Shown: positions 2,523-30,860, counted from the first letter of the stretch. The stretch: DNA of 64,000 bases from a virus (IMGVR_UViG_3300045988_174371:296644-360643); one strand, 5' to 3'. Notes: generated from the letters alone by a model not told the origin. Translations and numbers: made by a program.

Positions 2523-2535
2523 TAAGGGCTCATAT

Positions 2536-10395: not shown

Positions 10396-11826
10396 TTACC
10401 AGACTCGAAGCTTATCGCCGTACCTGTTCTTATCAGAGATTGGCTGAACGTTAAGCGTCTGGTCTTCCATCTCGTAGCGGCGCAACACGTTCTGAATAGC
10501 ATACTCAGAAGTGGTAGCCTGGAAAGCAGTTGCCCTGCTACCGTCAGGGTCACTCAACCTGTCCATCGGCGTAAGGTTCTCACGTATCTGAACCATCAGC
10601 CCCTTCTTATCGTCTACAACGACGTAAGTCTCACGAGTGCCATCCTTATCTGGAGCATTACCAATAATAAGGTTGCCCTTCTCAGCGTCCTCAATCTTCA
10701 CAGACTCAGTGTTCCAGTTCACACGCCTAGATGCCACAGGGTTATGCTCCGTGAGCCTCGGCTCAAACGCGCCCGCGAACTCATCAGCCTGCGCCGTAAT
10801 CATATCGCGCTTACGTCGAGCACTATTCATGATGGATACACGAGTTTCCGGCGAAACGTCAGGGTGCTCACTAAGGATACGCTTCATGTCCTCAGCCTCA
10901 TTGTACTGTTTCACCGGCTCACGCTTAGAAGCCTTAAACTCCTTCGCGTTAGCGTCAAACTCCACCTTACCAGCATCAATCTGCTCCTTGAGGTACTTCC
11001 TCACCTCACGCTTGAGCGCACCTTCGTTACCTGCCTTGAGCGCATTACTGGACTTACTGATGGCGGGCATACCGAACTGCTTGCGGGCAACCTCATAAAG
11101 CTTCCCGGCGTCCATAGAGTCCACACCATCCGCAAGCTCCCTATTGCGGCGAGACTGCTCAGTTAGAGCACTCTCACGTTCCTTAAGGTAGTTCGTCACA
11201 TTATCAAACATCTCCCCATAGGTTCCACTACCTTCATAGGTGCTCACAATACCAGGGTCAGCAGAGCTACGCCCAGCACGGAAATGACCGCCGTTATCGA
11301 GTGCCGCATACTCGTATAGCTCATCCTCATTAGAGTAAACGCGGGCACCGCCTGAGTGAAGCAGGTTCGTACCATCAAGGTCATGCATCGCACCAGTCTT
11401 CAGGTTCACATGACCCCACAACGCCCCATTAGGCGCACGCAGGGAACCGTCTTCCCCAATCTTGTAAACGAGAGCGTCTTGGTCGTTTAGCATGACGTAA
11501 GCGCCAGGCTTGACCTTTGCCTTCAACTTCGCGCCAGCTTCCTTGTGGTAAGCCTTCACAGCTGGCGAAGAATCATGCAGATAGAAGTTCTTACTGATAG
11601 GTGAATTTTTCAGCTGGTCAAGGCTGGAAGTATTGGACTTAATACTTGCCTTAATATCCTCCAGCTTCGCCGGGCCACTCTTTCGCGCCGCCTCATGCTT
11701 TGCATTAGTCGCATCCTTAAGCGCATCACCATACTTCTCAGCGTACAGCTGGTGACGCAACTTATTCAGCTCAACCTCCGGGTTCAACCCAAGCTTGGAC
11801 AGCTCATCAGGCGACACATCCCCCAT
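10396..11826 (-). CDS. family-A paralogue, C-terminal fragment (frame stays open upstream to 11961)
   Basis: Aligns with the C-terminal ~480 aa of the 13016, 15721 and 18237 proteins (PGAYVMLN.QDA.VY, FAGAFEP.LTE.NP..RR, terminal LRVW). Confidence 0.6.
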   Translation of the reverse strand: MGDVSPDELSKLGLNPEVELNKLRHQLYAEKYGDALKDATNAKHEAARKSGPAKLEDIKASIKSNTSSLDQLKNSPISKNFYLHDSSPAVKAYHKEAGAKLKAKVKPGAYVMLNDQDALVYKIGEDGSLRAPNGALWGHVNLKTGAMHDLDGTNLLHSGGARVYSNEDELYEYAALDNGGHFRAGRSSADPGIVSTYEGSGTYGEMFDNVTNYLKERESALTEQSRRNRELADGVDSMDAGKLYEVARKQFGMPAISKSSNALKAGNEGALKREVRKYLKEQIDAGKVEFDANAKEFKASKREPVKQYNEAEDMKRILSEHPDVSPETRVSIMNSARRKRDMITAQADEFAGAFEPRLTEHNPVASRRVNWNTESVKIEDAEKGNLIIGNAPDKDGTRETYVVVDDKKGLMVQIRENLTPMDRLSDPDGSRATAFQATTSEYAIQNVLRRYEMEDQTLNVQPISDKNRYGDKLRVW

Positions 11827-12908
11827 GTAACGCCCCCAAGCCTCACTACTATCAATGCCGTCATTGTGAATGACATCTGCGTTGATATGGTTATAAGCCG
11901 CCTTACGGAAGTATGGGTTAGAGTCCCCGGATACTGAATCATCATATTCTGCATAATTGCGTCATTGACTTGGTTGCCATCTTCACCGTAGTCAGTGATA
12001 GAACGCCAAGCGCGAGTATCGCGCTCACCAGCAACACCATCATACGCCGCGTCAGCCGCCTCATTAAGGAGCTTAAACTCATCCTCATAGTTAGAGGCAA
12101 TAGTCCGCTCCTCAACGTTCAGTTGGTCAGTCTGACCTGTGCGCATAGCCGTCAAAGCTACCCCAAAGTTATGGTACTCACCTTCCAGAGCCTTGTAGTA
12201 ATCGCCGCCCCTGTCCCCATAAGAGTAAGAGTACCCTTGCCTGTCCAATGCAGGCGGAAGCTCCTCAAAGTCGCTCCTAGCAGACATCTTGTAGGTACTG
12301 AGAACTTCCTGGAACTTAGCGAAACCCTCTTCCGTTTCCAGGTCAATGTCTTCCGGCTTAGACCTTTGAACCAGCGGGTGCGTCTCACCTGTCAAAGAGT
12401 CTCGCAATGAAGCCTCTCGCTTAGCCATAAATTCGCCAACAGCTTCACTCATTGACGCGGGAGGCTCATAATCCTCATAATCATCGTCATCCTCCAGGTC
12501 ACCCAAATTAGCGCTCAGCGCTTCTCGAAGTTCCTTCAACCCATCAGACTCAGCCTCAACGGTAGGTTCCTCTGCTACGACATCCTTACCTACGTTCTCG
12601 CGGGCGTACTTCGGGTCAGTCGGCTCACCAGCCAGTAGGTGAGCAATATCTTCAGGGAAGCCCATTTCAACCGCTTCATCGAACGGAATTTTCGACTCGC
12701 CCATAGCCTGAACGTGAATCTGGTACCCTTCCCTTAGGGTGGGTTCAAGAGACTGGAAAGCATTAGAAACTTCTTCCAAGTAGTTGTGCGCTTCCGAAGG
12801 GTCTGCGAAGTGGTTACCGTAAGGGCAACGTCCCTTATCGGCGCGGCATGTACCGCTGGTGAGTTCACCCTTCTTATTGAAACCTACGTGAGTTTTCTGT
12901 GCTGTCAT
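11784..12908 (-). CDS. family-A paralogue, N-terminal fragment
   Basis: MTAQKTHVGFNKKGELTSGTCRADKGRCPYGNHF. Homology to the paralogues ends near ...VNDAIMQNMM; the last ~50 codons are out-of-frame read-through. Confidence 0.6.
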   Translation of the reverse strand: MTAQKTHVGFNKKGELTSGTCRADKGRCPYGNHFADPSEAHNYLEEVSNAFQSLEPTLREGYQIHVQAMGESKIPFDEAVEMGFPEDIAHLLAGEPTDPKYARENVGKDVVAEEPTVEAESDGLKELREALSANLGDLEDDDDYEDYEPPASMSEAVGEFMAKREASLRDSLTGETHPLVQRSKPEDIDLETEEGFAKFQEVLSTYKMSARSDFEELPPALDRQGYSYSYGDRGGDYYKALEGEYHNFGVALTAMRTGQTDQLNVEERTIASNYEDEFKLLNEAADAAYDGVAGERDTRAWRSITDYGEDGNQVNDAIMQNMMIQYPGTLTHTSVRRLITISTQMSFTMTALIVVRLGGVTWGMCRLMSCPSLG

Positions 12909-12941
12909 ATTAGTTATCTATCCTTTTCATTGTTTCAAGTG

Positions 12942-12987
12942 TGCGGTGTGCGCCATGTAAGCAATAAGCCACATGGCGCACACCGCA
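12942..12987 (-). terminator. 17-bp hairpin tgcggtgtgcgccatgt/acatggcgcacaccgca
   Basis: Between the stop at 13016 and the start at 12908. Confidence 0.6.
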
Positions 12988-13015
12988 TATTGCCCTCTAT
13001 CGGGCGAAAAATGTC

Positions 13016-15544
13016 TTACCAGAGAATAAGGTCGTAATCGTTATCACTCTCGTAAGGCATATCCAGGACTTCAAGGCTAGTATCGCCCATCTTGTAGCGG
13101 TTAAGGATGTCAGTGACCGCATAGTCGGAAGTCATAGACTGATGGCTATCAGGAACCAATAGACCCTTAGAGTCGCTAGTGCTCTTCGCGTTCCTATGCT
13201 GTGAAGTGACCGTATGGAGAGGCACCATGCGCCCCTTCTCGCGGTCTACCACAACAAACGTAGGATGCTGGTCTTTCTCCTTATCCACTGAGTTGAACAG
13301 AATGTCGCCAGTTCGAGCATACTTAGGTGCCACACGCTTATTGTCCCAGACCCTACGCCTATGGGCGGATGGGTTGTTCTCAGTGAGCTTAGGCTCAAAA
13401 GCTCCCGCAAACTCATCGCCCTGCGTGGTGACACGGTTACGTGAACGCCTTGCCGCATTGATGATAGACATCTTCGTGGCTACAGGGGTGGTAGTGCCCA
13501 ACAAATCAACAAGAGACTTCTTAGGCTTGTAGTCACTCAACGGCTTACGGTTAGCCTTGACGATACTGCCAGTCTTCGGGTTGTACTTAGCCTTACCGTC
13601 ATTAAACTGCTTCTCCAAGAAATCCTGAACCATGATTTCTTTCTTAAACTGCCCCTCAGCACTATTGTCATCAGCAAGTTCCTTGTCGAAGGCGGGCATC
13701 CCAAACCTTGACGTAGCAACCTTGTACAGCTCGCTAGTGTCCTTGCCGCTAATTGCAGTGCTGTACTCCTGACGGATGGTTGAAGCATGGGCTAGAGCTT
13801 TCTCTTCACGCTTCAAATACTCCAGAGCACGCGCATATTTCTTCGCGTACTTCGGGTCGTCCTCGTAGCGGGAGCGGTAGCCAGGGTCGGAAGAAACAAT
13901 CTCATCGTCAGCCAATCCCGGACGGTCATCAAGCGCCGCATGGCTAATCAGCTCATTCTCATCAGCGTAAACAGTGACACCGCCACTATCTCGCGTAACG
14001 TTCCTACCGTGAGCGTTATACACCTTGCCCGACTTCGTATCCACGTAGCCCCACGTCTTACCATCAGGAGTAATGAGCGCGCCTTCATCGTCAATCTGGT
14101 ACACCTCAGCATCGTGCCCGTGAAGCATGACGTATGCGCCTGGCTTCAGCTTCTCCGCAACACGGCGACCTGACTCCTCATAATAATCGTTCGCAAGGAA
14201 ATTGTCGTCCCTATATGCGAATGGCTTCTCCAAGATGGAGCTATCTACTGACCTGGGGATGGTTCCGTAGGCTTCTATGTTCGCCTTAATCTCATCAACG
14301 TACAAGCCCTTAGCGGTCGCATTCGCGGACTTCTTCGCGCCTGCGTCCTTAGCGAGCATGTCAGTGTACTTATTGATGAACATGCGGTGACGGAACCTAT
14401 TCATCTCAATGTCTGGCTCGTACCCCATCTCAGTAGGAGCACTTCGCGGTATGCCGTAGGGTCCAATGACGCGATGCCAGTCAGCATCCCCTGCTACACC
14501 GTCATTGTGGATAAGGTCGCCGTTAATAGCTTCATCCGCCTGCCTGCGGAGCGACTTGTCTTCCCCTTTCATCTTCCTGAAAAGAGTGTCTTGGGTAATC
14601 AAGTCGTTAATTTCGTTGCCGAACTCGCCATAGTTTGCCATAGTCCTGAACGCTGGCGACCCTGGGAGATATATCCCCTGCGCATCATAGGCTTTACCAG
14701 CCTCATAATCAGTTTCAATATGGCTCAACAGGACATTGTTAATCATGTCTCGACGGGCTTTGTCGCGCTCATCCAGTCGCTCAAGGTTCCCGGTACGAAG
14801 AGCATTAACTGCTCCTGCGTACCTGTGAAGTTCCTTCTTCATCCGGTCACGGTCGCCGTTAGGGTCATGCCCCTCATAGATTGCGTCACGCAAGTAAGGG
14901 GACATTGCTTCAAACTCTTCCCCGTCCGAAAGCCTATAACTGTCCAGTACCTTACGGAAAAGGCGATACCCTTCATCTGTATCCAATTCAATCGGAACCA
15001 TAGGGTACCTATCATGGTCAATCCCTGCGGCACCTATCTCCTCTAGAAGTTTAGCCTTAGGGTTCGAGGCATCCACGGATGCTACCTTAGGTTCCTCCTG
15101 GGGGGGGGTGGGGGCGGCTTCTTTCGACTCAGGTTCAGCTCCCATAGGTGAGCCCTTAGGCTCCTCAACGGGTTCCTCCTTTACCTCTGACACCTCAGAG
15201 ACAGGCTCAGTGGGCTCAACGTCCTTGCCGACGTTCTCGCGCGCGTACTTCGGGTCAGTCGGCTCACCAGCCAGTAGGTGAGCAATATCTTCAGGGAAGC
15301 CCATTTCAACCGCTTCATCGAACGGAATTTTCGACTCGCCCATAGCCTGAACGTGAATCTGGTACCCTTCCCTTAGGGTGGGTTCAATGCTCTGGAATGC
15401 TAGTGAGACCTCCTCAAGGTAGTTATGGGCTTCGGCGGGGTCTGCGAAGTGGTTACCGTAAGGACAACGACCCTTCTCGGCGCGGCATGTACCGCTGGTG
15501 AGTTCACCCTTCTTGTTGAATCCTACGTGGGTTTTCTGTGCCAT
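13016..15544 (-). CDS. family-A large protein (N-terminal His/Cys module, conserved C-terminal region)
   Basis: ATG at 15544 gives MAQKTHVGFNKKGELTSGTCRAEKGRCPYGNHF. The ORF-track start at 15556 is TTG. Ends ...DYDLILW. Confidence 0.8.
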   Translation of the reverse strand: MAQKTHVGFNKKGELTSGTCRAEKGRCPYGNHFADPAEAHNYLEEVSLAFQSIEPTLREGYQIHVQAMGESKIPFDEAVEMGFPEDIAHLLAGEPTDPKYARENVGKDVEPTEPVSEVSEVKEEPVEEPKGSPMGAEPESKEAAPTPPQEEPKVASVDASNPKAKLLEEIGAAGIDHDRYPMVPIELDTDEGYRLFRKVLDSYRLSDGEEFEAMSPYLRDAIYEGHDPNGDRDRMKKELHRYAGAVNALRTGNLERLDERDKARRDMINNVLLSHIETDYEAGKAYDAQGIYLPGSPAFRTMANYGEFGNEINDLITQDTLFRKMKGEDKSLRRQADEAINGDLIHNDGVAGDADWHRVIGPYGIPRSAPTEMGYEPDIEMNRFRHRMFINKYTDMLAKDAGAKKSANATAKGLYVDEIKANIEAYGTIPRSVDSSILEKPFAYRDDNFLANDYYEESGRRVAEKLKPGAYVMLHGHDAEVYQIDDEGALITPDGKTWGYVDTKSGKVYNAHGRNVTRDSGGVTVYADENELISHAALDDRPGLADDEIVSSDPGYRSRYEDDPKYAKKYARALEYLKREEKALAHASTIRQEYSTAISGKDTSELYKVATSRFGMPAFDKELADDNSAEGQFKKEIMVQDFLEKQFNDGKAKYNPKTGSIVKANRKPLSDYKPKKSLVDLLGTTTPVATKMSIINAARRSRNRVTTQGDEFAGAFEPKLTENNPSAHRRRVWDNKRVAPKYARTGDILFNSVDKEKDQHPTFVVVDREKGRMVPLHTVTSQHRNAKSTSDSKGLLVPDSHQSMTSDYAVTDILNRYKMGDTSLEVLDMPYESDNDYDLILW

Positions 15545-15626
15545 AATGTTATCCAATCAAAAGATGCTTTTACTATGGTGTTTGTTATAGGCGGCTTATC
15601 GGTCGTTGATTTCCGCTTATAACACC

Positions 15627-15635
15627 TATATATCA
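15627..15635 (-). promoter_or_regulatory. extended -10 promoter TGATATATA
   Basis: Between the paralogues, preceded by the long inverted repeat ggggcgggtgcctca/tgaggcgcccacccc. Confidence 0.45.
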
Positions 15636-15720
15636 GGGGTGGGCGCCTCATTGCTGAATAGGAATCCCTACAGCACGTGTGAGGCACCCGCCCCTGGAAC
15701 TACATCCGTCACCTATCGCG

Positions 15721-18117
15721 CTACCATAGTTCCAAGTCGTCATTATCTTCAAAGGAGACGTTCTGCACGTTGAGGGATGAATCCTCTACCTGGTGGCGGT
15801 GTTCTATATTCTCAATCGTGTACTCAGAAGCCAGTGCGTTAATTCCGGTTGAGGTGGGGGTGGTGTCCAGCCTATCCACGGGTATCTTGTTGTTGCGGAT
15901 AGCCGCGATACTGCCTTTCTCCCTATCAACTACCACGTAGACATCGCGAGTGCCATCAGGTTTAGCTTTCTTACTGTAGAGCAGATTGCCGTTCTCGGCT
16001 TCACGCAGAGACATCTTCTTAGCGTTACCCCAATTCCTGCGCCTATGCGCCGATGGGTTACTCTCAGAGATTTTCTCCTCAAACATACCAGCAAATCGGT
16101 CTGCCTGAGAAGTGACCATATCGCGTTGCCGCCTTGCCGCATTAACAAGAGAAACCTTCACCTCAATAGGCAAAGACCCGTCTATCGTGTCATAGGGACT
16201 CCCTGTGGGGGCGAAGGACTCCACATTCGGTCGCTTCGCGGGAACGATAGTTTGCCTCTTAGATGAGTAGCGGATAGAGCCCTCGTCAATTTTCTTGTCC
16301 AAGTAATTGTGGAGAGCTCTCCTGCCTGGCTCGTCAAGCTTGCCTCTGAGCTTTGCTATGGGCGGCATCTCAAACCGCTCCACCGCAAGCTTATACATCG
16401 CATCAGGCGTAGGGTGCCCAGCTAGGAGGCTCTTCTCCCTATTGCGGGCGGCACGCTCCCTCGCGGCACGTTCTTTACGGCGGAAGAAGTTCAATACGCG
16501 CTTGAAGGGTCGCTTATACTTTGGCTCTTGCTCATACTTGCTGAAGCGCCCTGGGTCTGCCGAATCCTTACCTGCCTCGTCGTGAGGTGAATCGTCAAGA
16601 GCGGCGTACTGCATCAACTCTGCCTCATTCTCATATACGCGGGCACCACTTGTGGTGAACACTTCGTGACCGTCCTGCCCAATGATAACGCCGGTTTCGT
16701 AGTCCACTCGCCCCCATACACCACCACTGGTTGTTCGCAGGTTACCGTCCTCGTCCAGGCGGTACACTTCAGCGTCTTGCCCATTAAGCATCACAAAAGC
16801 GCCAGGCTTAAGCTTCTCACGGGTGCGCTTAACTGCTGACTGGTAGTACTCTTCGGAGATAACCCTCTTATCTTTACTTACGTAAGATGGTTCCCATTTA
16901 GGGGTTCCAGTGCTTTGGGGAGCCTTAGGGGTAGGCGGTTGGTTCTCAAGCATAGCTTGTTTCCTGAGGGCGGCTTCTTTCCTGAACTTGCTGTCTTGAA
17001 GCTCGCTCAGGTACATCCGTACAGCTCTAGAATGCTTTTCTGTAGCCATAGTGAGCTCAAGCTGTGCCTGTAGCTTCTCGTCACCGTCTTCCATCTTGCC
17101 GATAGCTTTAATGAGCTCATCGTAATTCGGCTTATGTGGGTCTTCTGGTGGTACCCCATATTTTGCCCGCAGTGCCGCCGCAAGGCGCTCACTCTGCCCC
17201 CTAACTGCTTCACGATGAATGAGTTTACCATTGATTGCCTTACGCGCCTCCAGGAACTCGCTATACGTATCGCCATTCGACATCTCCGCAAGCCTATCCT
17301 GAATAAGCCTGTCTTCCAGCTCATGACCATCTTCACCGTAATCAGTGACAAATTTCCACTTGTCATCATCATCGGTCTTCTTCACAGGTATGCCCTGCTC
17401 AGCGGATGCCTGCCTCATGACTTCCTTAAAGTACCTGGCGCGCGCAGTAAGCTCCACCACCCGCTCGGCATCAGCCGAAGAAATCTCGTCAGTCAAACCC
17501 AAACGCATCTTCGCCAAGGTCTTACCGAACCTACGGTATTCCTCAACGAAATTGTCCTTCTTCACGTCACCCTCACCCTCCAAGGTTTTAATGTCTTCGA
17601 GGATATACGGCGGAGGTGAGTCGAAATCTTCCGGCGCTGACACCTTATAGCCCCGCAAGATTGTGTACATCTTGCGGACATCATCAGGGTTATCCAAGTC
17701 CAGCTTAGGGGCTTTGCCGCTACCCTCCTGAAACTCGCTCTCGCTCTCCACAATGAGTGGCGCAGACTCACCCTTAACCTCTGCTTCGACGTACTCTCGG
17801 GCGTACTTCGGGTCGGTAGGCTCACCTGCAAGAAGCTTCGCAACCTCCTCAGGGAAACCCTTAGCTTCAGCAACTTCTAGAGGTATCTTACTGAATCCAC
17901 CTTCCTGCTTCGCCTGCTCATCGATATAGCCTTTAAGCTCCGGGGACAGAGAATTGACAAGCTCTGACGTGCGCTCTAGATAGTCATGAGCATCTGATGG
18001 GTCGGAAAAGTGGTTGCCGTAAGGGCAACGACCCTTCTTCGCGTCGCACTTACCGCTAGTGAGCTCACCCTTCTTATTGAACCCAACGTGAGTTTTGTTT
18101 TCCATAGTGTCTTCCAT
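15721..18117 (-). CDS. family-A large protein
   Basis: MEDTMENKTHVGFNKKGELTSGKCDAKKGRCPYGNHF (alternative ATG at 18105). Ends ...DDLELW. Confidence 0.8.
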   Translation of the reverse strand: MEDTMENKTHVGFNKKGELTSGKCDAKKGRCPYGNHFSDPSDAHDYLERTSELVNSLSPELKGYIDEQAKQEGGFSKIPLEVAEAKGFPEEVAKLLAGEPTDPKYAREYVEAEVKGESAPLIVESESEFQEGSGKAPKLDLDNPDDVRKMYTILRGYKVSAPEDFDSPPPYILEDIKTLEGEGDVKKDNFVEEYRRFGKTLAKMRLGLTDEISSADAERVVELTARARYFKEVMRQASAEQGIPVKKTDDDDKWKFVTDYGEDGHELEDRLIQDRLAEMSNGDTYSEFLEARKAINGKLIHREAVRGQSERLAAALRAKYGVPPEDPHKPNYDELIKAIGKMEDGDEKLQAQLELTMATEKHSRAVRMYLSELQDSKFRKEAALRKQAMLENQPPTPKAPQSTGTPKWEPSYVSKDKRVISEEYYQSAVKRTREKLKPGAFVMLNGQDAEVYRLDEDGNLRTTSGGVWGRVDYETGVIIGQDGHEVFTTSGARVYENEAELMQYAALDDSPHDEAGKDSADPGRFSKYEQEPKYKRPFKRVLNFFRRKERAARERAARNREKSLLAGHPTPDAMYKLAVERFEMPPIAKLRGKLDEPGRRALHNYLDKKIDEGSIRYSSKRQTIVPAKRPNVESFAPTGSPYDTIDGSLPIEVKVSLVNAARRQRDMVTSQADRFAGMFEEKISESNPSAHRRRNWGNAKKMSLREAENGNLLYSKKAKPDGTRDVYVVVDREKGSIAAIRNNKIPVDRLDTTPTSTGINALASEYTIENIEHRHQVEDSSLNVQNVSFEDNDDLELW

Positions 18118-18136
18118 CTTTCAACATGCATTTAGC

Positions 18137-18177
18137 AGTAGTGGGGGTGAAAGTCGAAAACCTTCACCCCCACTACT
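18137..18177 (-). terminator. hairpin agtagtgggggtgaa/ttcacccccactact
   Basis: 15-bp stem between paralogues, immediately downstream of a -10 motif. Either a terminator or a 5'-UTR hairpin. Confidence 0.5.
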
Positions 18178-18180
18178 AAC

Positions 18181-18191
18181 TATATATCGCA
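18181..18191 (-). promoter_or_regulatory. extended -10 promoter TGCGATATATA
   Basis: Motif directly upstream of the 18137-18177 hairpin and of the start at 18117. Confidence 0.4.
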
Positions 18192-18236
18192 TATAACCAG
18201 CGCTATGAAGCACCTACCAGTAAGGTTGTATGTATA

Positions 18237-20690: not shown

Positions 20691-20720
20691 TTTCTATTAT
20701 CCTTATCTTCATTTAGTTAC

Positions 20721-20757
20721 AGGTGGAGAGGCGAAGCTATTCTACGCCTCTCCACCT
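20721..20757 (-). terminator. hairpin aggtggagaggcg/cgcctctccacct
   Basis: 13-bp stem between the stop at 20792 and the start at 20690, immediately after a -10 motif. Confidence 0.5.
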
Positions 20758-20759
20758 CA

Positions 20760-20768
20760 TATATATCA
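20760..20768 (-). promoter_or_regulatory. extended -10 promoter TGATATATA
   Basis: Same promoter-then-hairpin arrangement as at 18181 and 58112. Confidence 0.45.
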
Positions 20769-20791
20769 AACAGTCCGCACCACCAGGGAGC

Positions 20792-22213
20792 TTAATGACC
20801 GCCGCCGCGTGCGCCGCCGTAAGGGGCATACCTAACACCCGTATCGTAACGTACCCATCCACATACAGCTGAACCGTTCACAATGTACGCCTGCATGGAG
20901 TGGTCTAGCCCCTCCCATGCGAAGCCTCTTTGTTCGCGAGGGTTCGGGGCGTTATCCCAAAGCTCCTTACATTCGTCAAATACGAGCATGTCAATCCCCG
21001 CATCATGCAGTTTCTTCCAATCGATACTGTATGTGTCTGCCGCTTCATCGTAAGTAATGAACCTATCCTCGAAGAACCTTGCCTCAGTTGGGCTTTTGAT
21101 GTTAAGCACGGTACTGTTGCGGTTAAACACAGGGGCATAGACGTGGGGGGTCTGAATGTAGTCGCCGTTTTGGTCATTCACTCGAAGATGGTCAGTAGTG
21201 ATGGTTGCAGAGTTGTAGTTGTAGAACCCGCCCGTCATCTCAAAAGCACCAGACCTATACGCATTGCCGGTGATGCTTTCTCCAGCCTTTCGGCGCGCCG
21301 CCCACGCCCGCTCCTTATCGTCAGCATCCTTACGGATAAGAGGGGCACTCAGTACGACATCGGGGAAGTCGTAATCTGGGCGGTTCGGTAGCCCGTCCAC
21401 CTTCGGGTTGTCGGCTAGTGTAGGGGTGAAGTATGGGCGGGCACCCCTGTACCCCTGAATGTGCTCTACAGACATGCCGGAAAGTATGGGGTTGTTGTAG
21501 TCACATTCCACCCGGTCGATACGTGCAGGGTTCGATTCGTAGTCTGCGATGAACAGGTACTCTTCGTTCTGGTCTAGGTTGAGGATGCCGCCGTGGTTAG
21601 CTTGAATGAATGGGTCTCGCGTGTAAATAAACACGTCGTGGCTTGCCATGTCTGTAGACGGGGTGCCGGTAATCGCCTGAGATTCGTCTTGGTACTCGTA
21701 ATCCAACGTGTACGCTTCACGCCCGTTATACTGCGTGATAGTGGGCTGTTGCCTCGTCTCAATCTCAATCTTCTTCCTAATCCACTTCTCGGAAGCCTGA
21801 GGGTATTTCATCCTAAGCTCAGCACGTTCCTGCTCATTCTGGAAACGCGGCATAAACTCACCATTTGGTAGCCACGGAGCCCACGGGTCATCATTGGCAT
21901 ACCCTGCGCCTTCCATCTCACGGATAGGTGGATTCGTCTTATCTCTCAGCTTCCGCGTAAGCCACTCTCGGAACTCTGGAGTGTCCAACTTCTGCCCGCT
22001 AGCGGCTAAAGCAGTGCTTTTAGCGGCTATCTCAGCATTCACCGAACCGACGTATTCCATGACGGAAGTCATGAACGCTAGGTCACCGTGAACCTTAGGG
22101 ACACCAACGTTTTCACTATTGAGGTGCTTGTAAGGGCACCCTTCAGGTGATGTGCAGGGGAGCATACGTAGCTCACCCGTCTCTGCGCTAGGGGAAAAAT
22201 GCATGAAAGCCAT
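20792..22213 (-). CDS. hypothetical protein with N-terminal H-C-C-H (CPY) module
   Basis: MAFMHFSPSAETGELRMLPCTSPEGCPYKHL... No purine-rich RBS; GGGTATACT lies just upstream. Confidence 0.75.
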   Translation of the reverse strand: MAFMHFSPSAETGELRMLPCTSPEGCPYKHLNSENVGVPKVHGDLAFMTSVMEYVGSVNAEIAAKSTALAASGQKLDTPEFREWLTRKLRDKTNPPIREMEGAGYANDDPWAPWLPNGEFMPRFQNEQERAELRMKYPQASEKWIRKKIEIETRQQPTITQYNGREAYTLDYEYQDESQAITGTPSTDMASHDVFIYTRDPFIQANHGGILNLDQNEEYLFIADYESNPARIDRVECDYNNPILSGMSVEHIQGYRGARPYFTPTLADNPKVDGLPNRPDYDFPDVVLSAPLIRKDADDKERAWAARRKAGESITGNAYRSGAFEMTGGFYNYNSATITTDHLRVNDQNGDYIQTPHVYAPVFNRNSTVLNIKSPTEARFFEDRFITYDEAADTYSIDWKKLHDAGIDMLVFDECKELWDNAPNPREQRGFAWEGLDHSMQAYIVNGSAVCGWVRYDTGVRYAPYGGARGGGH

Positions 22214-23692: not shown

Positions 23693-23748
23693 GATAGGCT
23701 CCTAACGTAAGGTGAAACTAAAACGTGTTGTGTTGTTGCGACATAGAA

Positions 23749-23757
23749 GATATAGCA
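23749..23757 (-). promoter_or_regulatory. extended -10 promoter TGCTATATC
   Basis: About 55 nt upstream of the start at 23692. Confidence 0.45.
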
Positions 23758-23772
23758 GAACAAACAGAGAAT

Positions 23773-23817
23773 GGGTGTACCCTCCACTAGTCATAAGCGA
23801 CCAGCCGGGGTACACCC
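23773..23817 (-). terminator. hairpin gggtgtaccc/ggggtacaccc
   Basis: Inverted repeat about 50 nt after the stop at 23870. Confidence 0.5.
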
Positions 23818-23869
23818 ATTTTCAAATACACAACACGAATCAGGTTACGTCATAACCAGAGGGGCGACG

Positions 23870-25573
23870 CTACTTCTTCTCAGCTTCACCCTTATCCTTG
23901 TTCTTCTTGTGCGGTGAGACACTGATAGAAGCCTTAGTGTAGGTGAGGTCAGCCAGCTCTTCAGGACTGAACTCCATCTCCATTAGCTCGTAGCTGTATG
24001 CGGCGCTTCGAGTACCGTAGGTGCGTATCAGCGAATCAAACCTGGGACCCAGCACTTCCTTCTGCACAGCCTTAGGTGCAGACTGTTGCCTTGAAGACTG
24101 GACAATGTTCGTGCCAATGTCACCGCTATCAGTGCCCATAATGACGTTCATGTTCGGGGCATACTCTTTCGCCAAGTGCCCCTTAATGGCAGTTGAACCA
24201 GCGCGAACTTCCTTCTCCAAGTCAGCCACAGTCCTACCGCCGGTCTTCTCCTCGAAGTGCTTCGTGGCAGTAGCCAAGTCTCGACACGCATCGTTCAAGG
24301 TGGAGCGGACATCCTTAACCCTGTTGGTAGAGCGGTTTGCAGACGGAGGCGTGAACTTGATGCCAATCTCATTCTCTGCCTGAGCTGATAGGTTCGGAGA
24401 CAGGTAGTTAATCTCGCTCACGTTGCGGGTGACCTGCTGGAACTCTTCCTCGGTGATGTCGCCGTTATCCCTAGCCGCACGCCAGCCATCAATAGTGATG
24501 GAAACCGTGTGAGGCGCGGTAATCCTGTCGCGGACTTCCTTAGGAAGCTTATCAACCTTAGCGGTATCAATCGCGTTGTAATCAAACTGCACCTCGACAA
24601 GCTTGTCATCGTGAACAACAGCAATGTGCTCACCGATACCAGTACCGTTCTTAACGGACGGGTTGCCGGAAATGCTCATGATGTACTGAAGGCGCTTGAC
24701 GGTTGCCTCCTCATTAGCCTTCTGAGCTTCTAGAAGAGCCTTCGTCTCGGAAAGCTCCTGGAAGTCTACGACCTTCTCCGTGCCGCCCTTACCCTTTGCG
24801 GTAACGGAGGTTACAGGGAGGTATACTGAGCCGCGAACCTTGTCGCGCATGTACTCCTTGCCCCTCTTCTTGGGGACAAGGTTGCGCATCTCTCGGTACA
24901 GACCATTGAGCTCTTCACGGCTTGCACCTTCCTCCTTGCGCTTCTGGTACTCAGCCTCAAGCTCCTTGTACTTCGCTTCCTTCTCTTCACGAATCTTAGC
25001 GCGGTCACGCTCATCCTTCTCATTAACAGACCTGCTGTTACTCGGAGCGAGCTGACGGCGCAGGTATTCGTCTGCGGCGAGCTTACGTGCGTTCTCTTCC
25101 TCCAGGTTGCCCCTACGCTCCTGGATGAATGCCTTGTAGCGCTTCGCACCTTCCTCAGGCCCGTGAGCTTCCATATAGCTCTTGGAGTATGCGAGGGTCT
25201 TGCCACCGGCGAGAGCACGCATGACCTTGATGGTTTCACGACCCTCAATCGTCTTTGCGCGGCGGCGGCTACCAGAAACGGACTTGGAAATGTAGTTACG
25301 CAAGATACGCGGCGCAACTGCGTCAGTCTGGAACTTCATCAGCATACGGGTACCAGCGGTAGCCTTCGCGTTTTCCAGAGCCTTATTGATGGCACTCTTG
25401 GGCGGGTAGACGGGCGGGTCGCCTAGGAGCTGTTCCTGCATCTCAGGCGGCAGGTACTCGGTGACGATGTGCATATCCATACCACCGTAGGGGCAGGTGT
25501 CTGCGCCTGCCGCCTTACAGCGACCTACGCCGGGGAACGGGGGGAGGAAGGGGCTAAAGTGTAGACCAGCCAT
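23870..25573 (-). CDS. hypothetical protein with N-terminal H-C-C-H (CPY) module and K/E-rich coiled-coil region
   Basis: MAGLHFSPFLPPFPGVGRCKAAGADTCPYGGMDMH... GGAG RBS. Confidence 0.75.
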   Translation of the reverse strand: MAGLHFSPFLPPFPGVGRCKAAGADTCPYGGMDMHIVTEYLPPEMQEQLLGDPPVYPPKSAINKALENAKATAGTRMLMKFQTDAVAPRILRNYISKSVSGSRRRAKTIEGRETIKVMRALAGGKTLAYSKSYMEAHGPEEGAKRYKAFIQERRGNLEEENARKLAADEYLRRQLAPSNSRSVNEKDERDRAKIREEKEAKYKELEAEYQKRKEEGASREELNGLYREMRNLVPKKRGKEYMRDKVRGSVYLPVTSVTAKGKGGTEKVVDFQELSETKALLEAQKANEEATVKRLQYIMSISGNPSVKNGTGIGEHIAVVHDDKLVEVQFDYNAIDTAKVDKLPKEVRDRITAPHTVSITIDGWRAARDNGDITEEEFQQVTRNVSEINYLSPNLSAQAENEIGIKFTPPSANRSTNRVKDVRSTLNDACRDLATATKHFEEKTGGRTVADLEKEVRAGSTAIKGHLAKEYAPNMNVIMGTDSGDIGTNIVQSSRQQSAPKAVQKEVLGPRFDSLIRTYGTRSAAYSYELMEMEFSPEELADLTYTKASISVSPHKKNKDKGEAEKK

Positions 25574-25728
25574 AGTTATTTTTCTCCATCTTCATATAAT
25601 ATGCCGTGAACCCCTAGTGTGGCTTGCGCCACATCATTCCATTGCGGGGTTCATGTCGAAACTTATCCATATAACACATTCCGTTTCAAACTTAGGGGTT
25701 CTAGTGGTGCAATGGAACTGACGTATAC

Positions 25729-25737
25729 TATATAGCA
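25729..25737 (-). promoter_or_regulatory. extended -10 promoter TGCTATATA
   Basis: Upstream of the start at 25573. Confidence 0.45.
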
Positions 25738-25834
25738 GACAGGAAGGGGGTTCGCCCCAAAATGGAGTGAAGCCCCACTTTTCCGGTGCCAGAGTAATGG
25801 CGGGGAAATGTGGGGCTTCTATAGCTAGAGGCAC

Positions 25835-28318
25835 TTACAGTAGCGAGCCTAGACCGACGCTATCGACAATAATAGCTTCCTGGGTCTTACCCAAAGCCTC
25901 AGCAATAAGCGACAGCGGGACACTCTGTAGGTTCAGCCCAGCGTTAGCGCTAATGAGTGTCTTCATGGCTTCCTGCATCGTGACACCTGCAAGCTGGGGT
26001 ACGGCGGAGAAAGGAATGTTCGGGTCAATCCTCTTCACAAAAGTGCTGAACATCGTGTCCGGGTGAAGACTTACCAGCGCCGCCAGACCCTCAATTGCAG
26101 AGTCCCACCCATGCTCACGGGTAAGAACCGTAACGACATCCATTGCGGAGATGTTCAACATCTGCGCCACTACACTCAGCGGGGCGTTGAGCACCTTCTC
26201 CTCGTTCGCTTCAATGATGCGTTGCATCACCGTGGGTACAGCTCGTGAAGTCTTCACCGAAACGTCGCCAAGAGTAGGACCCGTGTGCTTCGGCGGGGCA
26301 GGTAGCGGCGGGAACGGCGTAGCGCGGGCTACACGTTCTTCCTCCTGCTGGGCGCGGCTGAGTGCTCCGTGGTCGGTATGCTCCTGAATCTCTGGCAGGG
26401 CGAAGTTGATAGCCAGCTTGCTATCGCCAGGGAGCGGCTTGTACACGGTAATCGACTCGTTAAATAGCGACTGCTGACCATCAGCTACGCAATTCTTAGC
26501 CGATAGACTGTTCGCCATTTTCGGCTTCGGTTTTGCGACACGCGGAGTCTCCTGCTTCTTTCCCTGAGTCACCTCAGAAACTTCTTTCTGCGTAGGGAGG
26601 TTCGCGGTGGTGTTCTCCTGCTGGGGTGCTTCCTGCGGGGGTGCTGAAACTCCCTTGAGCACCGTCACCTTCGCGGGCTTCTTCGTGACTAGTCTAACCA
26701 TAGACTCCATAAACTCATCCTTTGTGGCGGCAGGTTTAGCCACCTCATCTACCTGCTGTGAGGAAGTCTCTACAGTCGCTTCCTCATCGTTCTTCACCGG
26801 CGGCTCTTCTTGTTCAGTCTCGACCGTTAGCGGGGCTTCCTCAGGCGTGGGCTTACCCGCCGTGAATGCGGCGTGGAAGTCCCAATCGGTATTGATAGCA
26901 GAGCCGCCCAGAGCGTTTAGGTGCTCATAGTACAAGACGGTCTCAGTTGAGGGGTCATACACTGCTTCAAAGGGCACGGGGTAAGGGCACGGCTCAGTAA
27001 CACACTCCATCTCCTCAGGAGTTCGCTTAGCCTTATCCAGGTAATCCTCGACGGTTACACCTCTGGTAAACCCATTAAAGTCCTTGCTGGGGGTGTATAG
27101 CGCCACGTAGCGGGCAACTTCACGGGCAGGGTAGTTGAGGCTCAACATCTCTAGGTACCTGCGCTCATTCAGGGATACGCCGGTGTAGCGCTGGGTAACG
27201 TTCTCCCACGGTTTGATGGTGTACGACTTGCCGTTACGACCAGTGAAAGAGATGGTCGGCTTGTAGTATACGTTCGGGTGGTATGCCGTGAGTGGTGCCT
27301 TCGAATCAGGTGAGATGTAAGACACTGGCTGTGGCGCGCCCATTCCACCATCACGCCTCGTCTTCACCGTATCGGTCAGCATCTTATTGACATTAGTCAA
27401 GGCAATGCCAAATGAAGCGCCCACCACTTTCTGCGTATACTCTCTCGAAGCGCCACACCAAACCATAGACAGCGTAAGGCTCTGCGGAGTTACCGTATGC
27501 CCTGCGTCGTTAGACAGCTTCTCAGTGTCGATACAGGGGTGCTCCATGCCTTCCATGCGGGAGAGCGCGCTCAGCGCGTGCTCATCCGCTGAGATAGGGA
27601 GAGGGTTATAGAGGTAGGTCGGGTTAATCGCGGTGAACCTGCGGCTAAGCCCAGCCTGCACATAGTCACCATAGGAGAGGACATAAGGGCAGGGCACAGG
27701 CGAGTCATAGTGCTTTTTCGCGCCGCTCTTGACACGAGCATAAGCACGGACACATGACCGCGTTTCCATCGGCGTAAACAGGATGTAATACGCGAGCAAG
27801 TCGGCAGGCATTGACTTGCCAGAGTATTCACTGGAGATGTAGTCCAGGTACGCGAGGTCTTCATCACGCCAGGTACTCCAGCTCATATCCGTATCGATAC
27901 CAAGGTCGTAGAGCGCACCGTGGGAACGGTTCTCTCTGCGCGTCGGGTCATCCGCGCTACGCCTATCATCGGTGTAAGGATAAGGCGGTGGAGCCTGAAT
28001 ACTGTTCTTGTACTCGATACGCATCTCCACCACAGCATTCTGAGACTCGGCGGACTCCTGAATAGCGCGAACCACCTCAGGGCTACAAAGACCATTGAGC
28101 GATTCAGAGATAACCTCAACCGGCAAGCCAATGTAAGTGAAGAAGTCAATCCAACGCTTCTCAAGGAGCGTGCGATTACCCTCCGGGACGTTCTGTGCGA
28201 CTGCCTGCGACACAGCAGTCTGCGCCATAACACTGAAGACAGACTCGGAACTGGGTGAGCCCCAAAGGTTCTTGATGTGCTCACCGTACCTCTGCTGAGG
28301 TTCATAAGTGGGGGACAT
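25835..28318 (-). CDS. hypothetical large protein with two internal CPY motifs
   Basis: ORF-track ORF. Internal HYDSPVPCPYVLSYG and ECVTEPCPYPVPF. P/E/Q-rich central linker. Confidence 0.75.
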   Translation of the reverse strand: MSPTYEPQQRYGEHIKNLWGSPSSESVFSVMAQTAVSQAVAQNVPEGNRTLLEKRWIDFFTYIGLPVEVISESLNGLCSPEVVRAIQESAESQNAVVEMRIEYKNSIQAPPPYPYTDDRRSADDPTRRENRSHGALYDLGIDTDMSWSTWRDEDLAYLDYISSEYSGKSMPADLLAYYILFTPMETRSCVRAYARVKSGAKKHYDSPVPCPYVLSYGDYVQAGLSRRFTAINPTYLYNPLPISADEHALSALSRMEGMEHPCIDTEKLSNDAGHTVTPQSLTLSMVWCGASREYTQKVVGASFGIALTNVNKMLTDTVKTRRDGGMGAPQPVSYISPDSKAPLTAYHPNVYYKPTISFTGRNGKSYTIKPWENVTQRYTGVSLNERRYLEMLSLNYPAREVARYVALYTPSKDFNGFTRGVTVEDYLDKAKRTPEEMECVTEPCPYPVPFEAVYDPSTETVLYYEHLNALGGSAINTDWDFHAAFTAGKPTPEEAPLTVETEQEEPPVKNDEEATVETSSQQVDEVAKPAATKDEFMESMVRLVTKKPAKVTVLKGVSAPPQEAPQQENTTANLPTQKEVSEVTQGKKQETPRVAKPKPKMANSLSAKNCVADGQQSLFNESITVYKPLPGDSKLAINFALPEIQEHTDHGALSRAQQEEERVARATPFPPLPAPPKHTGPTLGDVSVKTSRAVPTVMQRIIEANEEKVLNAPLSVVAQMLNISAMDVVTVLTREHGWDSAIEGLAALVSLHPDTMFSTFVKRIDPNIPFSAVPQLAGVTMQEAMKTLISANAGLNLQSVPLSLIAEALGKTQEAIIVDSVGLGSLL

Positions 28319-28629
28319 ATATAGTTACCATCCTAAAACTTGTAGTACAGGCGGGCTTCCTACCAACATGCGGCATACGGCACCGACCTACTGACACATT
28401 CTACCACAGTTTACGGATGTACTACGGAGTGAACTACCGGCACCACTCACTAAATGTGTGGTAGGCGTATCTAACTGCTTCGATGGGTGCCTAAATGGGC
28501 GACCAAAAGCGGGATGAAGTAACAGAAGCGTGGCGGTGAGCTCAAGTAACCATAATGAGCTCACCGCCACGCTTCTGTGAAAATAAATGCGGAACCCCTA
28601 ACAAGCAGGGGTGGTATTCAGTTGTGAAG

Positions 28630-28718
28630 CGGATAGAGCGGGATTCGAACCCGCGGGGCACCGCTAAGCACCCTCTGGTTTTCAAGACCAGTGCCTTCAG
28701 CCACTCAGCCACCTATCC
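28630..28718 (-). tRNA. tRNA-Ser (anticodon TGA), class II
   Basis: GGATAGG..., anticodon loop CTTGAAA, long variable arm, T-loop GGTTCGAATCC. Confidence 0.85.
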
Positions 28719-28747
28719 AAATACAGCTAAACTGGGTTTAGCTGACG

Positions 28748-28819
28748 CTGAGGCGCTAGGACTCGAACCTAGAACTTCGGCTTCAGAGACCGACGTGTTG
28801 CCAATTACACCACGCCTCA
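28748..28819 (-). tRNA. tRNA-Gln (anticodon CTG)
   Basis: TGAGGCG... (U1-A72), anticodon loop CTCTGAA. Confidence 0.85.
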
Positions 28820-28843
28820 TTAAACCCATATTCAATTATGGTG

Positions 28844-28916
28844 CTGGGGTAACAGGGTTCGAACCTGTAACTTCCGCGTTCAAAGCACGGGGTGTTGCCA
28901 GTTACACCATACCCCA
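28844..28916 (-). tRNA. tRNA-Gln (anticodon TTG)
   Basis: TGGGGTA... (U1-A72), anticodon loop CTTTGAA. Confidence 0.85.
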
Positions 28917-29004
28917 TAGGGGGCTGGCTACTCTGCTCGGCTTGAGAGCACCCAGCCCCACAGTAAGGAATCGTAAGGAAACCTTGGGAAGAATCGCAAT
29001 ATCT

Positions 29005-29013
29005 ACTATAGCA
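29005..29013 (-). promoter_or_regulatory. extended -10 promoter TGCTATAGT for the tRNA trio
   Basis: About 90 nt upstream of the tRNA-Gln 5' end (28916). Confidence 0.45.
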
Positions 29014-29044
29014 GGGATATTGCCAAGATGCAACTCCAGGAGTG

Positions 29045-29458
29045 TTACTTTCGGGAGGTGCTTCTTACTGGTTCCAAGGAACCATCATACACTAGTCGGG
29101 CGCGCTGGCAAATCTCCTTCAAAGTCATCTCAGCAACTTCCACGCTTTCACTAGTGCACAGCTCTGAGACTGTCTCTAGGTCGTCGTCGGCTAGGACGAC
29201 GATACGCCACAGCTCGGGCTTACTGCGAACGTTTGGGTTAGTGCATACATCCTCCAGCGTCCGATAGAGTGAATCCCTATCTGGTGTTGCGCGTTCTCGC
29301 ATCTTGAACATGATGCGGGCTCTTCCTGCAACCGCCTCTAGGGGGATGTCGCCTGTTTCGGACTGTACGGTCACTCCTGGCGCGACAATAACTCTATATG
29401 TTCCAGTTCGCCTATTCTCGTAGGTGAGGGTGATGACGGGGTATGTGTGGCGTGCCAT
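29045..29458 (-). CDS. hypothetical protein
   Basis: ORF-track ORF. Confidence 0.6.
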   Translation of the reverse strand: MARHTYPVITLTYENRRTGTYRVIVAPGVTVQSETGDIPLEAVAGRARIMFKMRERATPDRDSLYRTLEDVCTNPNVRSKPELWRIVVLADDDLETVSELCTSESVEVAEMTLKEICQRARLVYDGSLEPVRSTSRK

Positions 29459-29510
29459 TTCGCGTAATTATTCCTTCTTTCGAATACTTATGGTATCTGT
29501 ATAGCTCACG

Positions 29511-30860
29511 TTAGGTGACTTTAAGCCATCGGTCTTGGAAGCGGATACCTGATTCCTTGGGGAACTGATTGACGGGCTTCCAGTAGGCAGTGACTACCTG
29601 TTGCTGTGGCGGGTCGATACTGAGCACCAGAATAAGGTTGCATTCCTCAGGTGGGGCACCTTTCTCGGGTGCCACGACTCGGCTGTATTCTGATGAGCGG
29701 ATACTAATGGAACGCCCCGACTTGCGCTTATCATCATACTCAGTCACGGAGTACGTTCCAGGGGTGTATGACTGTAGCGTGAAGTAGACATCTTCAGCGG
29801 TGAGCTCTGCAAGCTTTCCGCTATTCAGCTTCTCATACACGTGCCCACTGAACTCTAGGCTCACTGGGTTGATAGCCTTCACGTGCTGATGGAAGCGTTC
29901 AATGGACGCTTCGTCCATCTGTGCGTAGGTGATTTGGCGCTGACCCTTAGTGAGGCGGGGCCAGTGAGCTCGCGTACCCTTTTTGCGTGCTGTTTTCTGC
30001 TTGAAAGCCCAGAGAGCTCGAATCTGAGGGACATCCCACAGTACACCGTTCTTCTCTGCCTGAGCTTTCTCTCGCTCAATCTCGCGGTTAAGCTTGCGTG
30101 CCACATGCGGTGGTGTCTTCGAGTTGCGTATCTTTTCGTCGCGCTCGGTAATGTACCGTGCGCGGTCAAGGTAGATGCGCTGTTTCTCAAGCTCAATAAG
30201 GTACTCTTCCTCAGTCTCAGGGACACGTTCCTTTGGTGACGGGAGGATGTAGGTGCGACCATTTAGCCCGGAAACCCTAATGTCGCCAGGCTGGAGCGGC
30301 GCATCTTCCACAGACTTGACGCTCGGAAGTGTGCGCGGCTTCGGTGGAGGCACTGCGCTAGGGCGAGGCGCGCTTGGCTTCGGGGCGGCTGGCTTCGGAG
30401 AACTTGGCGTAGGTGATGGATTTGGGGTGTTGCCGGAAGTAGGCTTCGGCGGCTGAGGCTCCCTCTTCTGTTCTTGCTCTTTGAGGGATGCCGCTTCGCG
30501 GCGTGCTTTCTGTCTAGCTTCCTTTGGTGTGGTGTACCTATTCTTGGCGCGAGATTCGCTCTCGTCGCTAATGTTCTTAGGGGTTGAAGGCTTCGGCGTG
30601 CCAGTTTGAGGCTCGTTGCCGTTCTTCTGTGCTTTTCGGCGTGCGGCTTTCTCGCGGCGCGCTTTCTGCTTCGCGTACTTTGGGGCGTACTTGGCTTCAG
30701 AGCGTTCCTCGACTACATCGCAGACATGCTCTAGGGAGCCGTGCGGCTCATCGCAGAAGGGGCAGTCTGCTGGGTCTTTCGCGGAGCATTTACCGTATTC
30801 GTCTTGTTTATTGACATGGTACTTGACCGTAGGTGGTCTTACGTTTGCCGTGGTAGACAT
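29511..30860 (-). CDS. hypothetical basic/Pro-rich protein with N-terminal H-C-C-H-like module
   Basis: ...KYHVNKQDEYGKCSAKDPADCPFCDEPHG... Followed by K/R-rich and P-rich tracts. Confidence 0.7.
   Translation of the reverse strand: MSTTANVRPPTVKYHVNKQDEYGKCSAKDPADCPFCDEPHGSLEHVCDVVEERSEAKYAPKYAKQKARREKAARRKAQKNGNEPQTGTPKPSTPKNISDESESRAKNRYTTPKEARQKARREAASLKEQEQKREPQPPKPTSGNTPNPSPTPSSPKPAAPKPSAPRPSAVPPPKPRTLPSVKSVEDAPLQPGDIRVSGLNGRTYILPSPKERVPETEEEYLIELEKQRIYLDRARYITERDEKIRNSKTPPHVARKLNREIEREKAQAEKNGVLWDVPQIRALWAFKQKTARKKGTRAHWPRLTKGQRQITYAQMDEASIERFHQHVKAINPVSLEFSGHVYEKLNSGKLAELTAEDVYFTLQSYTPGTYSVTEYDDKRKSGRSISIRSSEYSRVVAPEKGAPPEECNLILVLSIDPPQQQVVTAYWKPVNQFPKESGIRFQDRWLKVT

Follow-up and report, generated by a model that had tools for sequence, protein, structure and literature searches.

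A small N-terminal His/Cys domain heads many unrelated proteins of very large uncultivated genomes: a candidate adaptor module

The viral DNA considered here (IMGVR_UViG_3300045988_174371:296644-360643) is a stretch of 64,000 nt, called the window below, and coordinates given without another source are positions within it. Between 10.4 and 30.9 kb it carries a run of minus-strand open reading frames (ORFs). At most seven of these open with the same small element, a head of about 45 residues built around the ligand-type residues His, Cys, Cys and His (the HCCH head). The headed ORFs belong to four families: family A with four copies, and the proteins of 449, 567 and 473 aa (Table 1). A preliminary description of this region had counted at least eight headed proteins, among them five family-A genes. 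The peptides that it quoted are all present where it placed them, but the count comes down to seven ORFs at most, since the supposed fifth family-A gene is the headless C-terminal part of a frameshift-split fourth copy and the 827-aa protein is not a carrier.

A relaxed form of the head pattern, H-x8-16-C-x4-8-C-P-[YFWLH]-x1-8-H, was run on the six-frame translation of the window and gave exactly seven matches, all seven on the minus strand and all seven opening real long ORFs. The shuffling control proposed in the preliminary description came out clearly: the mean was 0.22 matches (maximum 3) in 100 mononucleotide shuffles of the window and 0.40 (maximum 4) in 100 codon-block shuffles. Counting ORFs of 150 aa or more, composition predicts 0.9 occurrences of CP[YF], and nine were observed. 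The spacing H-x9-13-C-x5-7-C-x1-10-H is found in 7/7 window heads, and the first His lies at residue 5-7 in six of them and at residue 15 in the 449-aa protein. The narrower pattern first put forward, H-[VF]-x(9-14)-C-x(5-7)-C-P-[YF]-x(3-7)-H, describes the 567-aa protein and misses all the others, for which its spacings are too tight. Apart from the heads, BLASTP between the four window families detected no likeness, only short matches of low identity with E >= 0.003.

An independent hidden Markov model (HMM) was built from 112 foreign heads, with all window sequences and all family-A relatives left out. It gave 38.6-40.0 bits for the four family-A heads and an E value of 9e-8 for the 449-aa protein. 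The best match per shuffled window (n = 20) ranged from 5.0 to 11.4 bits; the 567-aa protein, at 13.8 bits, lies above this maximum, and the 473-aa protein, at 6.3 bits, lies inside the range and thus at chance level.

Table 1. Headed ORFs and associated reading frames of the window, with scores from the independent HMM.
Feature	Positions	Strand	Head or HCCH core	HMM (bits)	Remarks
Family-A paralogue, 817 aa	18237..20690	-	head residues 1-~50 at ~20541-20690; core 20595-20675: HVGFNKDGQLTSGKCDAKKGRCPYGNH	39.3	38% identity to the 846-aa copy
Family-A paralogue, 798 aa as listed	15721..18117	-	core 18010-18090	38.6	true start likely ATG at 18105 (MENKTHV…), matching database homologues
Family-A paralogue, 846 aa from TTG	13016..15556	-	core 15449-15529	39.1	true start likely ATG at 15544 (MAQKTHV…)
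Fourth family-A copy, split	10396..12908	-	core 12810-12890	40.0	ORF 11784-12908 (374 aa) bears the head; ORF 10396-11826 (476 aa) is headless
449-aa protein	29511..30860	-	core 30741-30818: HVNKQDEYGKCSAKDPADCPFCDEPH	28.4	
567-aa protein, divergent head	23870..25573	-	core 25469-25561: HFSPFLPPFPGVGRCKAAGADTCPYGGMDMH	13.8	
473-aa protein, head-like N-terminus	20792..22213	-	core 22124-22201: HFSPSAETGELRMLPCTSPEGCPYKH	6.3	regex match
827-aa protein	25835..28318	-		no match	not a carrier; internal CPY at residues 210 and 444

The two ORFs of the fourth family-A copy align to the N-terminal and the C-terminal half of the other copies, respectively, and their reading frames join near 11930. In the sister genome L016, about 98% identical over this copy, the gene is intact (837 aa) and has a single extra G relative to the window; the split is thus due to a 1-nt deletion at about 11930. 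Across 29 family-A sequences down to 25% identity, K8, H10, V11, G17, L19, G22, C24, A26, C31, H36 and F37 are invariant, and a distant clade reads HVRPNGELGKCSAKIKCDF…HF, without CPY. Over 31 codons, the family-A heads of the window show 5-11 synonymous and 1-5 non-synonymous differences.

The AlphaFold model of a full-length family-A protein (the 846-aa copy) has a mean predicted local distance difference test score (pLDDT) of 77.8 and a predicted template modelling score of 0.69. Its head is predicted to consist of strands 8-13, 19-24 and 35-37 and a helix 40-55. Helices then extend to about residue 95, a stretch at 112-177 has pLDDT <50, and a large body comes after it. Foldseek found no significant match for the full model in the PDB, where the body has no neighbour, and megablast of the family-A block gave no match among GenBank phages. 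Family A occurs solely on metagenomic contigs, of up to 371 kb.

Several further features of family A may be recorded here. The last residue is an invariant Trp in 29/29 aligned proteins (…L-x-[VL]-W-stop), a possible recognition element at the C-terminus. Three related genomes (the window, L016 and L001) each have one broken family-A copy, with a different lesion each time: besides the split copy of the window, in L016 (15141-17670) another copy has a poly-C tract lengthened from C9 to C10, and L001 has an in-frame TAG (10223-10225) where a relative has Gln. Such lesions could be assembly errors, ongoing pseudogenisation or phase variation. In L016 a TnpB / Cas12f1-like_TNB gene (20540-22090) is inserted beside the family-A block; it is absent at the matching place in the window.

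In the 449-aa protein the head is preceded by an extension of 11-13 residues and followed by a long low-complexity stretch rich in Lys, Arg and Pro. A GTG alternative start that would trim the extension was considered and rejected, for the codon is GTC and there is no alternative start codon. Orthologues keep all of H, C, C and H in the 449-aa protein (65% identity) and in the 567-aa protein (58% identity), as they do in family A. The 473-aa protein departs from this: in orthologues of 87% identity CPYKH becomes CPYKN, and the last His, the fourth ligand, is lost. It shares with the 567-aa head the start MA-x-[ML]-HFSP, and on these sequence grounds is a possible, doubtful degenerate relative that we do not count as a member. 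The preliminary view that three unrelated proteins begin with the same head is therefore upheld for the 449- and 567-aa proteins and not supported for the third. The 827-aa protein had been listed for its two CPY motifs; the head HMM does not match it, and at the second site orthologues of 49% identity keep only PCP[YF], the upstream partner Cys being replaced.

How far does the head extend beyond the window? A HMMER search with a 13-sequence profile (window heads plus close relatives) of 1.84 billion representative proteins gave 161 clusters (50% identity) at E<=1e-3; in nearly all of them the match begins at residue 1 of the target and ends near residue 45. One of them, P0064, is a presumed false positive, a Cys-rich repeat protein with partial profile matches in 13 separate stretches. 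The consensus reads M-x-K-[YF]-H-[VI]-N-x3-4-G-x2-G-x-C-x-A-x3-4-C-P-[FY]-G-x3-8-H-[FY]-x-[ST]-x2-E-A-x3-[YF]-E. The first His falls at residue 3-7 in 130/133 database matches, and the spacings are narrow (H-x9/10-C in 126/133, C-x5/6-C in 130/133, then C-x4-10-H). The alignment of 121 heads has no exception at H, C, C and H and few at G, A, P and A.

An AlphaFold2 model of the head alone, made from the 121-head alignment, has a pLDDT of 83 and shows a beta-hairpin (5-9 and 15-19), a short strand (32-33) and a helix (36-51), the same elements as in the family-A model. The four ligand-type residues are placed in strand 1, just past strand 2, in the following loop and in the short strand directly before the helix. 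Between Met1 and the last ligand the chain is mildly basic (mean charge +1.1), and the helix is acidic (-1.9); the Cys knuckle has recurrent Lys/Arg and conserved aromatic residues. Such a beta-beta-(beta)-alpha unit of 45 residues, followed by low-confidence or low-complexity linkers, bears out the original suggestion that the head is not a catalytic domain.

A few proteins have a second head, in tandem or near the C-terminus. One is encoded at 2844-3674 of contig L025 and has two heads in tandem, while three proteins of about 150 aa (P0072, P0088 and P0109) have two heads with a linker of ~55 residues between them. To judge from their architecture, these two-head proteins show that the module can presumably function away from the N-terminus. 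Second copies weaken the idea of a pure N-terminal signal, and the two-copy proteins, including those of module-linker-module type, argue for an autonomous domain.

The head lies outside all curated families with which it was compared and is an undescribed domain family. In 129 headed proteins no family of Pfam-A, NCBIfam or PHROGs covers it, only the C-terminal domains being matched, and the window proteins gave nothing significant for the head against Pfam and PHROGs. The profile search of PDB sequences returned 0 matches at E<=10. Against BFVD, Foldseek gave weak matches only, of which the top three plausible ones all come from the uncultured phage ctHip2, one being named Zeta toxin. No description of an HCCH head was found in the literature searched. 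An N-terminal metal site of the ATCUN type was also considered and rejected: after Met removal the His stands at position 4-6, not at position 3.

The head is nearly absent from cellular genomes and common on metagenomic contigs of 240-830 kb. In 185,579 GTDB species genomes, searched with two narrow peptide patterns of limited sensitivity, there were 4 confirmed loci, all on short contigs of metagenome-assembled genomes. Of the IMG/VR loci with a head, 7/10 are on contigs of 244-325 kb. The same database holds a 319-kb relative, and an uncultivated viral genome (UViG) of 306,861 bp, IMGVR_UViG_3300045988_174689, which is ~99% identical to the window and whose 473-aa and 449-aa proteins are 99% identical to those of the window. 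By tblastn, the consensus head (E<=1e-3 and E<=10) and two real heads had no true match in 50,697 GenBank phage records, and one real head had none in 72,556 plasmids.

Headed genes tend to lie together. Several loci bear pairs, the 3.5-kb contig L002 has four consecutive headed genes, a 573-kb contig has six within 21 kb, and the 828-kb contig L025 (JGI 3300062451|Ga0540622_0000002) has 13 headed ORFs within 21 kb, one of them with tandem heads. Genes neighbouring the arrays on the 573- and 828-kb contigs gave no Pfam match, and the 828-kb contig consists almost wholly of ORFans.

Upstream regions of headed genes have features of their own. In L025, [GT]TTAGA[GA]A stands some 25-38 nt ahead of the start codon in most of 11 headed genes, and in several it follows a hairpin; this motif may be a shared phage promoter, which would imply co-regulation of the array. 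In the window each headed gene has a strong GC-rich stem-loop upstream, then an AG-rich ribosome-binding region (e.g. 20691-20810, 18118-18237, 12909-13028, 25574-25693, 30861-30980). In the three intact family-A copies, (T/C)GATATATA lies some 70-80 nt upstream; over the window as a whole the TGATATATA motif found ahead of family-A copies shows no enrichment (10 observed against 7.6 expected).

Behind the head the proteins have little in common. Single-linkage BLASTP (E<=1e-3) divided 116 tails of at least 60 aa into 94 groups, and the 12 tails of the L025 array include a single related pair. The central claim of the preliminary description, a small zinc-knuckle-like N-terminal module on otherwise unrelated large proteins, is thereby confirmed with at least 94 unrelated bodies in public data. 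Heads within one genome have diverged at the DNA level as well: 11 heads of L025 have on average 39% identical codons, 26% synonymous and 35% non-synonymous differences. Many synonymous differences with Cys, His, Gly and Pro fixed mean that strong purifying selection acts on the head peptide and that gene conversion is not what keeps the heads alike.

Annotation was possible for only about 15% of the bodies. Their domains are ADP-ribosyltransferases (exoenzyme and Alt-like), Zeta/AAA_33 P-loop (PNK-like) kinases, GNATs, RNA ligases of the T4 Rnl1 and DRB0094 types, exonucleases (DEDD, RecE, YqaJ), nucleotidyltransferases, a RelA/SpoT-like protein, polymerase-related families, and ApbE, HEAT and HTH domains. 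In locus L006 (IMG/VR UViG_3300036946_000238) a PNK-like kinase (Zeta/AAA_33; 2294-3340) and a T4 Rnl1-type RNA ligase (5635-7137) are both headed and lie about 2.3 kb apart. In T4, Pnk and Rnl1 jointly repair cleaved tRNA. By their domains, the two L006 proteins would be an RNA-repair pair.

In its general behaviour the head resembles the N-terminal address or adaptor modules of viral multigene families, such as the T4-type capsid targeting sequence (CTS), Bro-N/KilA-N and ZAD, while differing from each in size, ligand chemistry, fold or host range. The CTS is a conserved N-terminal element that forms the sole common feature of highly diverse phage accessory proteins from variable loci (PMC3012670). 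The HCCH head, too, is an N-terminal element common to otherwise unrelated proteins, and an Alt-like ADP-ribosyltransferase is among its partners. However, the CTS is only about 10 residues of linear peptide and is cut off by the prohead protease, and the head is a predicted folded His/Cys domain of ~45 residues, without sequence similarity to it and sometimes duplicated or C-terminal. Iyer, Koonin and Aravind are said to have described Bro-N/KilA-N in 2002 as a strictly N-terminal small domain on many unrelated C-terminal regions, in multigene families within one viral genome. The head likewise stands N-terminally before unrelated bodies in several genes per genome, but neither the 129 headed proteins nor the window proteins had a Pfam match to Bro-N/KilA-N, which are larger than the HCCH head and bind no metal.

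The ZAD of insect C2H2 proteins is presented as an N-terminal zinc-coordinating domain that has undergone lineage-specific expansion and mediates dimerisation (PMC7913770). The head has no sequence or fold match to it, and the headed bodies are mutually unrelated, whereas ZAD proteins all have C2H2 arrays. The ZAD is also eukaryotic, with four Cys and about 80 residues. With CCHC knuckles and CCCH fingers the head has in common a tiny Cys/His site (with a putative metal in the head), conserved aromatic and basic residues, and occasional two-copy proteins. Its ligand order and spacing, H-x9-13-C-x5-7-C-x2-10-H, are unlike C-x2-C-x4-H-x4-C or C-x7-8-C-x5-C-x3-H, it is predicted as a hairpin plus a 16-residue helix, and it has no significant profile match to them; the 473-aa head against the Nab2-like CCCH finger of Pfam stayed sub-threshold (E=0.46, 10.8 bits against a cutoff of 27). 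Finally, the matched passages of a paper on polyvalent phage proteins (PMC5512222) name ADP-ribosyltransferases, nucleotidyltransferases, kinases and RNA-directed enzymes as early-effector domains, and in these passages no such head is described. The partner repertoire of the head overlaps the early-effector domains named there, but unlike MuF-fused and polyvalent proteins each HCCH-headed protein has one body and no MuF, portal or metallopeptidase domain.

If the head is so widespread, then we can ask: What does it do for its bodies? In the reading that we favour, the N-terminal ~45 residues would be an autonomous mini-domain in which a single metal ion, most probably Zn2+, coordinated by the invariant His, Cys, Cys and His, holds a beta-hairpin, a short third strand and a helix together. 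The domain would be joined to the body through a linker that is flexible or of low complexity. The head would thus be an adaptor, not a catalytic domain, that gives many unrelated accessory proteins one common interaction, and its target might be nucleic acid (RNA, tRNA or DNA ends), the basic Cys knuckle and the conserved aromatic residues tethering the body to its substrate. To this reading, an autonomous and probably zinc-binding tethered adaptor with a nucleic-acid target slightly favoured, we assign a probability of roughly 0.4. Nucleic acid as the target is in itself a tentative choice with somewhat less than an even chance. The lean toward it comes from the recognisable partners, which are mostly nucleic-acid enzymes, from the heads on both RNA-repair enzymes of L006, from the mildly basic segment between Met1 and the last ligand, and from the Lys/Arg-rich stretch after the 449-aa head; the two-head proteins, which recall bivalent knuckle proteins, may point the same way by analogy.

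Several points weigh against this reading. The head is not strongly basic overall, the +1.1 of the knuckle standing against -1.9 of the helix. About 85% of the partner bodies have no annotation, and the nucleic-acid bias of the annotated ones may, and likely does, reflect which phage proteins are recognisable; some of these partners moreover act on proteins or small molecules (Alt-like ADP-ribosyltransferases, GNAT, ApbE, HEAT). The near-absolute N-terminal position fits a targeting signal and is not required for nucleic-acid binding, although the search profile had Met as column 1 and so was slightly biased to N-terminal matches, internal copies being still detectable. We infer the single metal ion, most probably Zn2+, only from the invariant residues and the confident model. 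Foldseek against the PDB gave as best match for the head an MbtH-like protein at E=2.0, which is not significant.

Among the alternatives, a tag for virion loading or ejection is the likeliest, though rather unlikely in itself. Here the head would dock diverse effectors on a scaffold, inner-body or portal component, so that they are packaged and delivered with the DNA, much as by the T4 capsid targeting sequence but through a folded, metal-binding element. This would explain the strictly Met-proximal position and is in line with the Alt-like ADP-ribosyltransferase partners, PHROGs named 'minor head protein' and 'head maturation protease', the enrichment on very large contigs (7/10 IMG/VR loci on 244-325 kb, arrays on 573- and 828-kb contigs), the linker of pLDDT <50 behind the family-A head, and a close parallel with T-even internal proteins. 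However, no capsid, portal or protease gene is recognisable in the window, and the PHROG head-protein matches may stem from ADP-ribosyltransferase domains. Second copies in tandem or at the C-terminus and module-only proteins are odd for a leader signal, and a stably folded metal domain would need unfolding for passage through the tail. We also know of no RNA-repair enzyme carried as virion cargo, which we count against this alternative.

Somewhat less probable still is oligomerisation or docking on a hub, in which the heads would associate among themselves or with a single common protein of phage or host, thereby gathering the accessory proteins in one complex or place; the ZAD does something comparable for zinc-finger proteins. 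The module-linker-module proteins of about 150 aa resemble bivalent connectors or competitors, the charge is dipolar (basic knuckle, acidic helix), two enzymes of one RNA-repair pathway are both headed, and the ZAD offers the precedent of an N-terminal zinc-binding dimerisation domain expanded in one lineage (PMC7913770). The best fold neighbour has a protein-binding fold, the MbtH-like one, but that match is not significant (E=2), and no conserved partner gene was identified.

Of similarly low probability is a broader idea, that the head is a general cargo address of very large phages: a folded, metal-dependent tag that would dock dozens of unrelated effectors per genome on one receptor (the capsid interior, an inner body, a phage-built compartment or a hub), so that arsenals are co-delivered or co-localised. 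Phages would in effect have a secretion-signal domain, present in more copies the larger the genome.

An explanation at the DNA level is highly improbable. Here the 5' end would serve for swapping cassettes, as in polymorphic toxin loci, with gene conversion or recombination keeping its sequence alike, and the peptide would be functionless. Tandem arrays of headed genes with unrelated bodies, and the motifs common to upstream regions in one array, would suit such a site, but the heads of a single genome have many synonymous differences around fixed Cys, His, Gly and Pro, and the four ligand residues are invariant over 121 distant heads; the codon analysis thus largely refutes gene conversion as the cause of head conservation. 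Chance resemblance, a Cys/His pattern spotted by eye in a paralogue-rich window, has been refuted for family A, the 449-aa and the 567-aa protein and has next to no probability: four of the seven matches are indeed paralogues, the first regex matches one ORF only and the 473-aa protein is the sole remaining case at chance level, but shuffles give 0.2-0.4 matches in place of 7, an HMM from foreign sequences alone detects the other heads, and 161 database clusters match, nearly all from residue 1.

The rest of the window has almost no recognisable proteins. Its minus strand bears all of its 25 tRNA genes, which form arrays flanking the headed block (8747-8992, 28629-28916, 50432-50506, 57963-63675) and among which no suppressor tRNA was seen. 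A surface-adhesin-like protein of 902 aa (5767-8475, minus strand; Adhesin_P1_N, DUF11, sub-threshold AgI/II C2) is also encoded, and in syntenic relatives a sortase gene lies beside the adhesin-like gene (L001 14470-17184 and 18471-19379). Adhesin and sortase together suggest that the host is Gram-positive and that the element decorates its surface. Among the very few other recognisable genes are an adjacent MoxR-type AAA_5 ATPase and a VWA-like (DUF2201) protein (44331-45896 and 45936-47762, minus strand).

The head is of interest for its breadth and because it is confined to very large genomes of uncultivated origin, several of which IMG/VR lists as viral. Very large phages have hundreds of genes without homologues, and one small domain that labels a large, otherwise unclassifiable subset of them is a way into this dark matter: as many as 13 genes within 21 kb bear the head, and the top matches include 94 or more unrelated bodies. 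With nothing for it in Pfam, NCBIfam or the PDB, the head merits a curated profile. Its binding target, whatever its nature, would point to one pathway common to all headed proteins. Were the head an RNA- or DNA-binding knuckle, it would be a new class of metal finger, linking RNA-repair enzymes and uncharacterised effectors to one substrate; were it a loading or localisation tag, cargo in engineered phages could be addressed with it.

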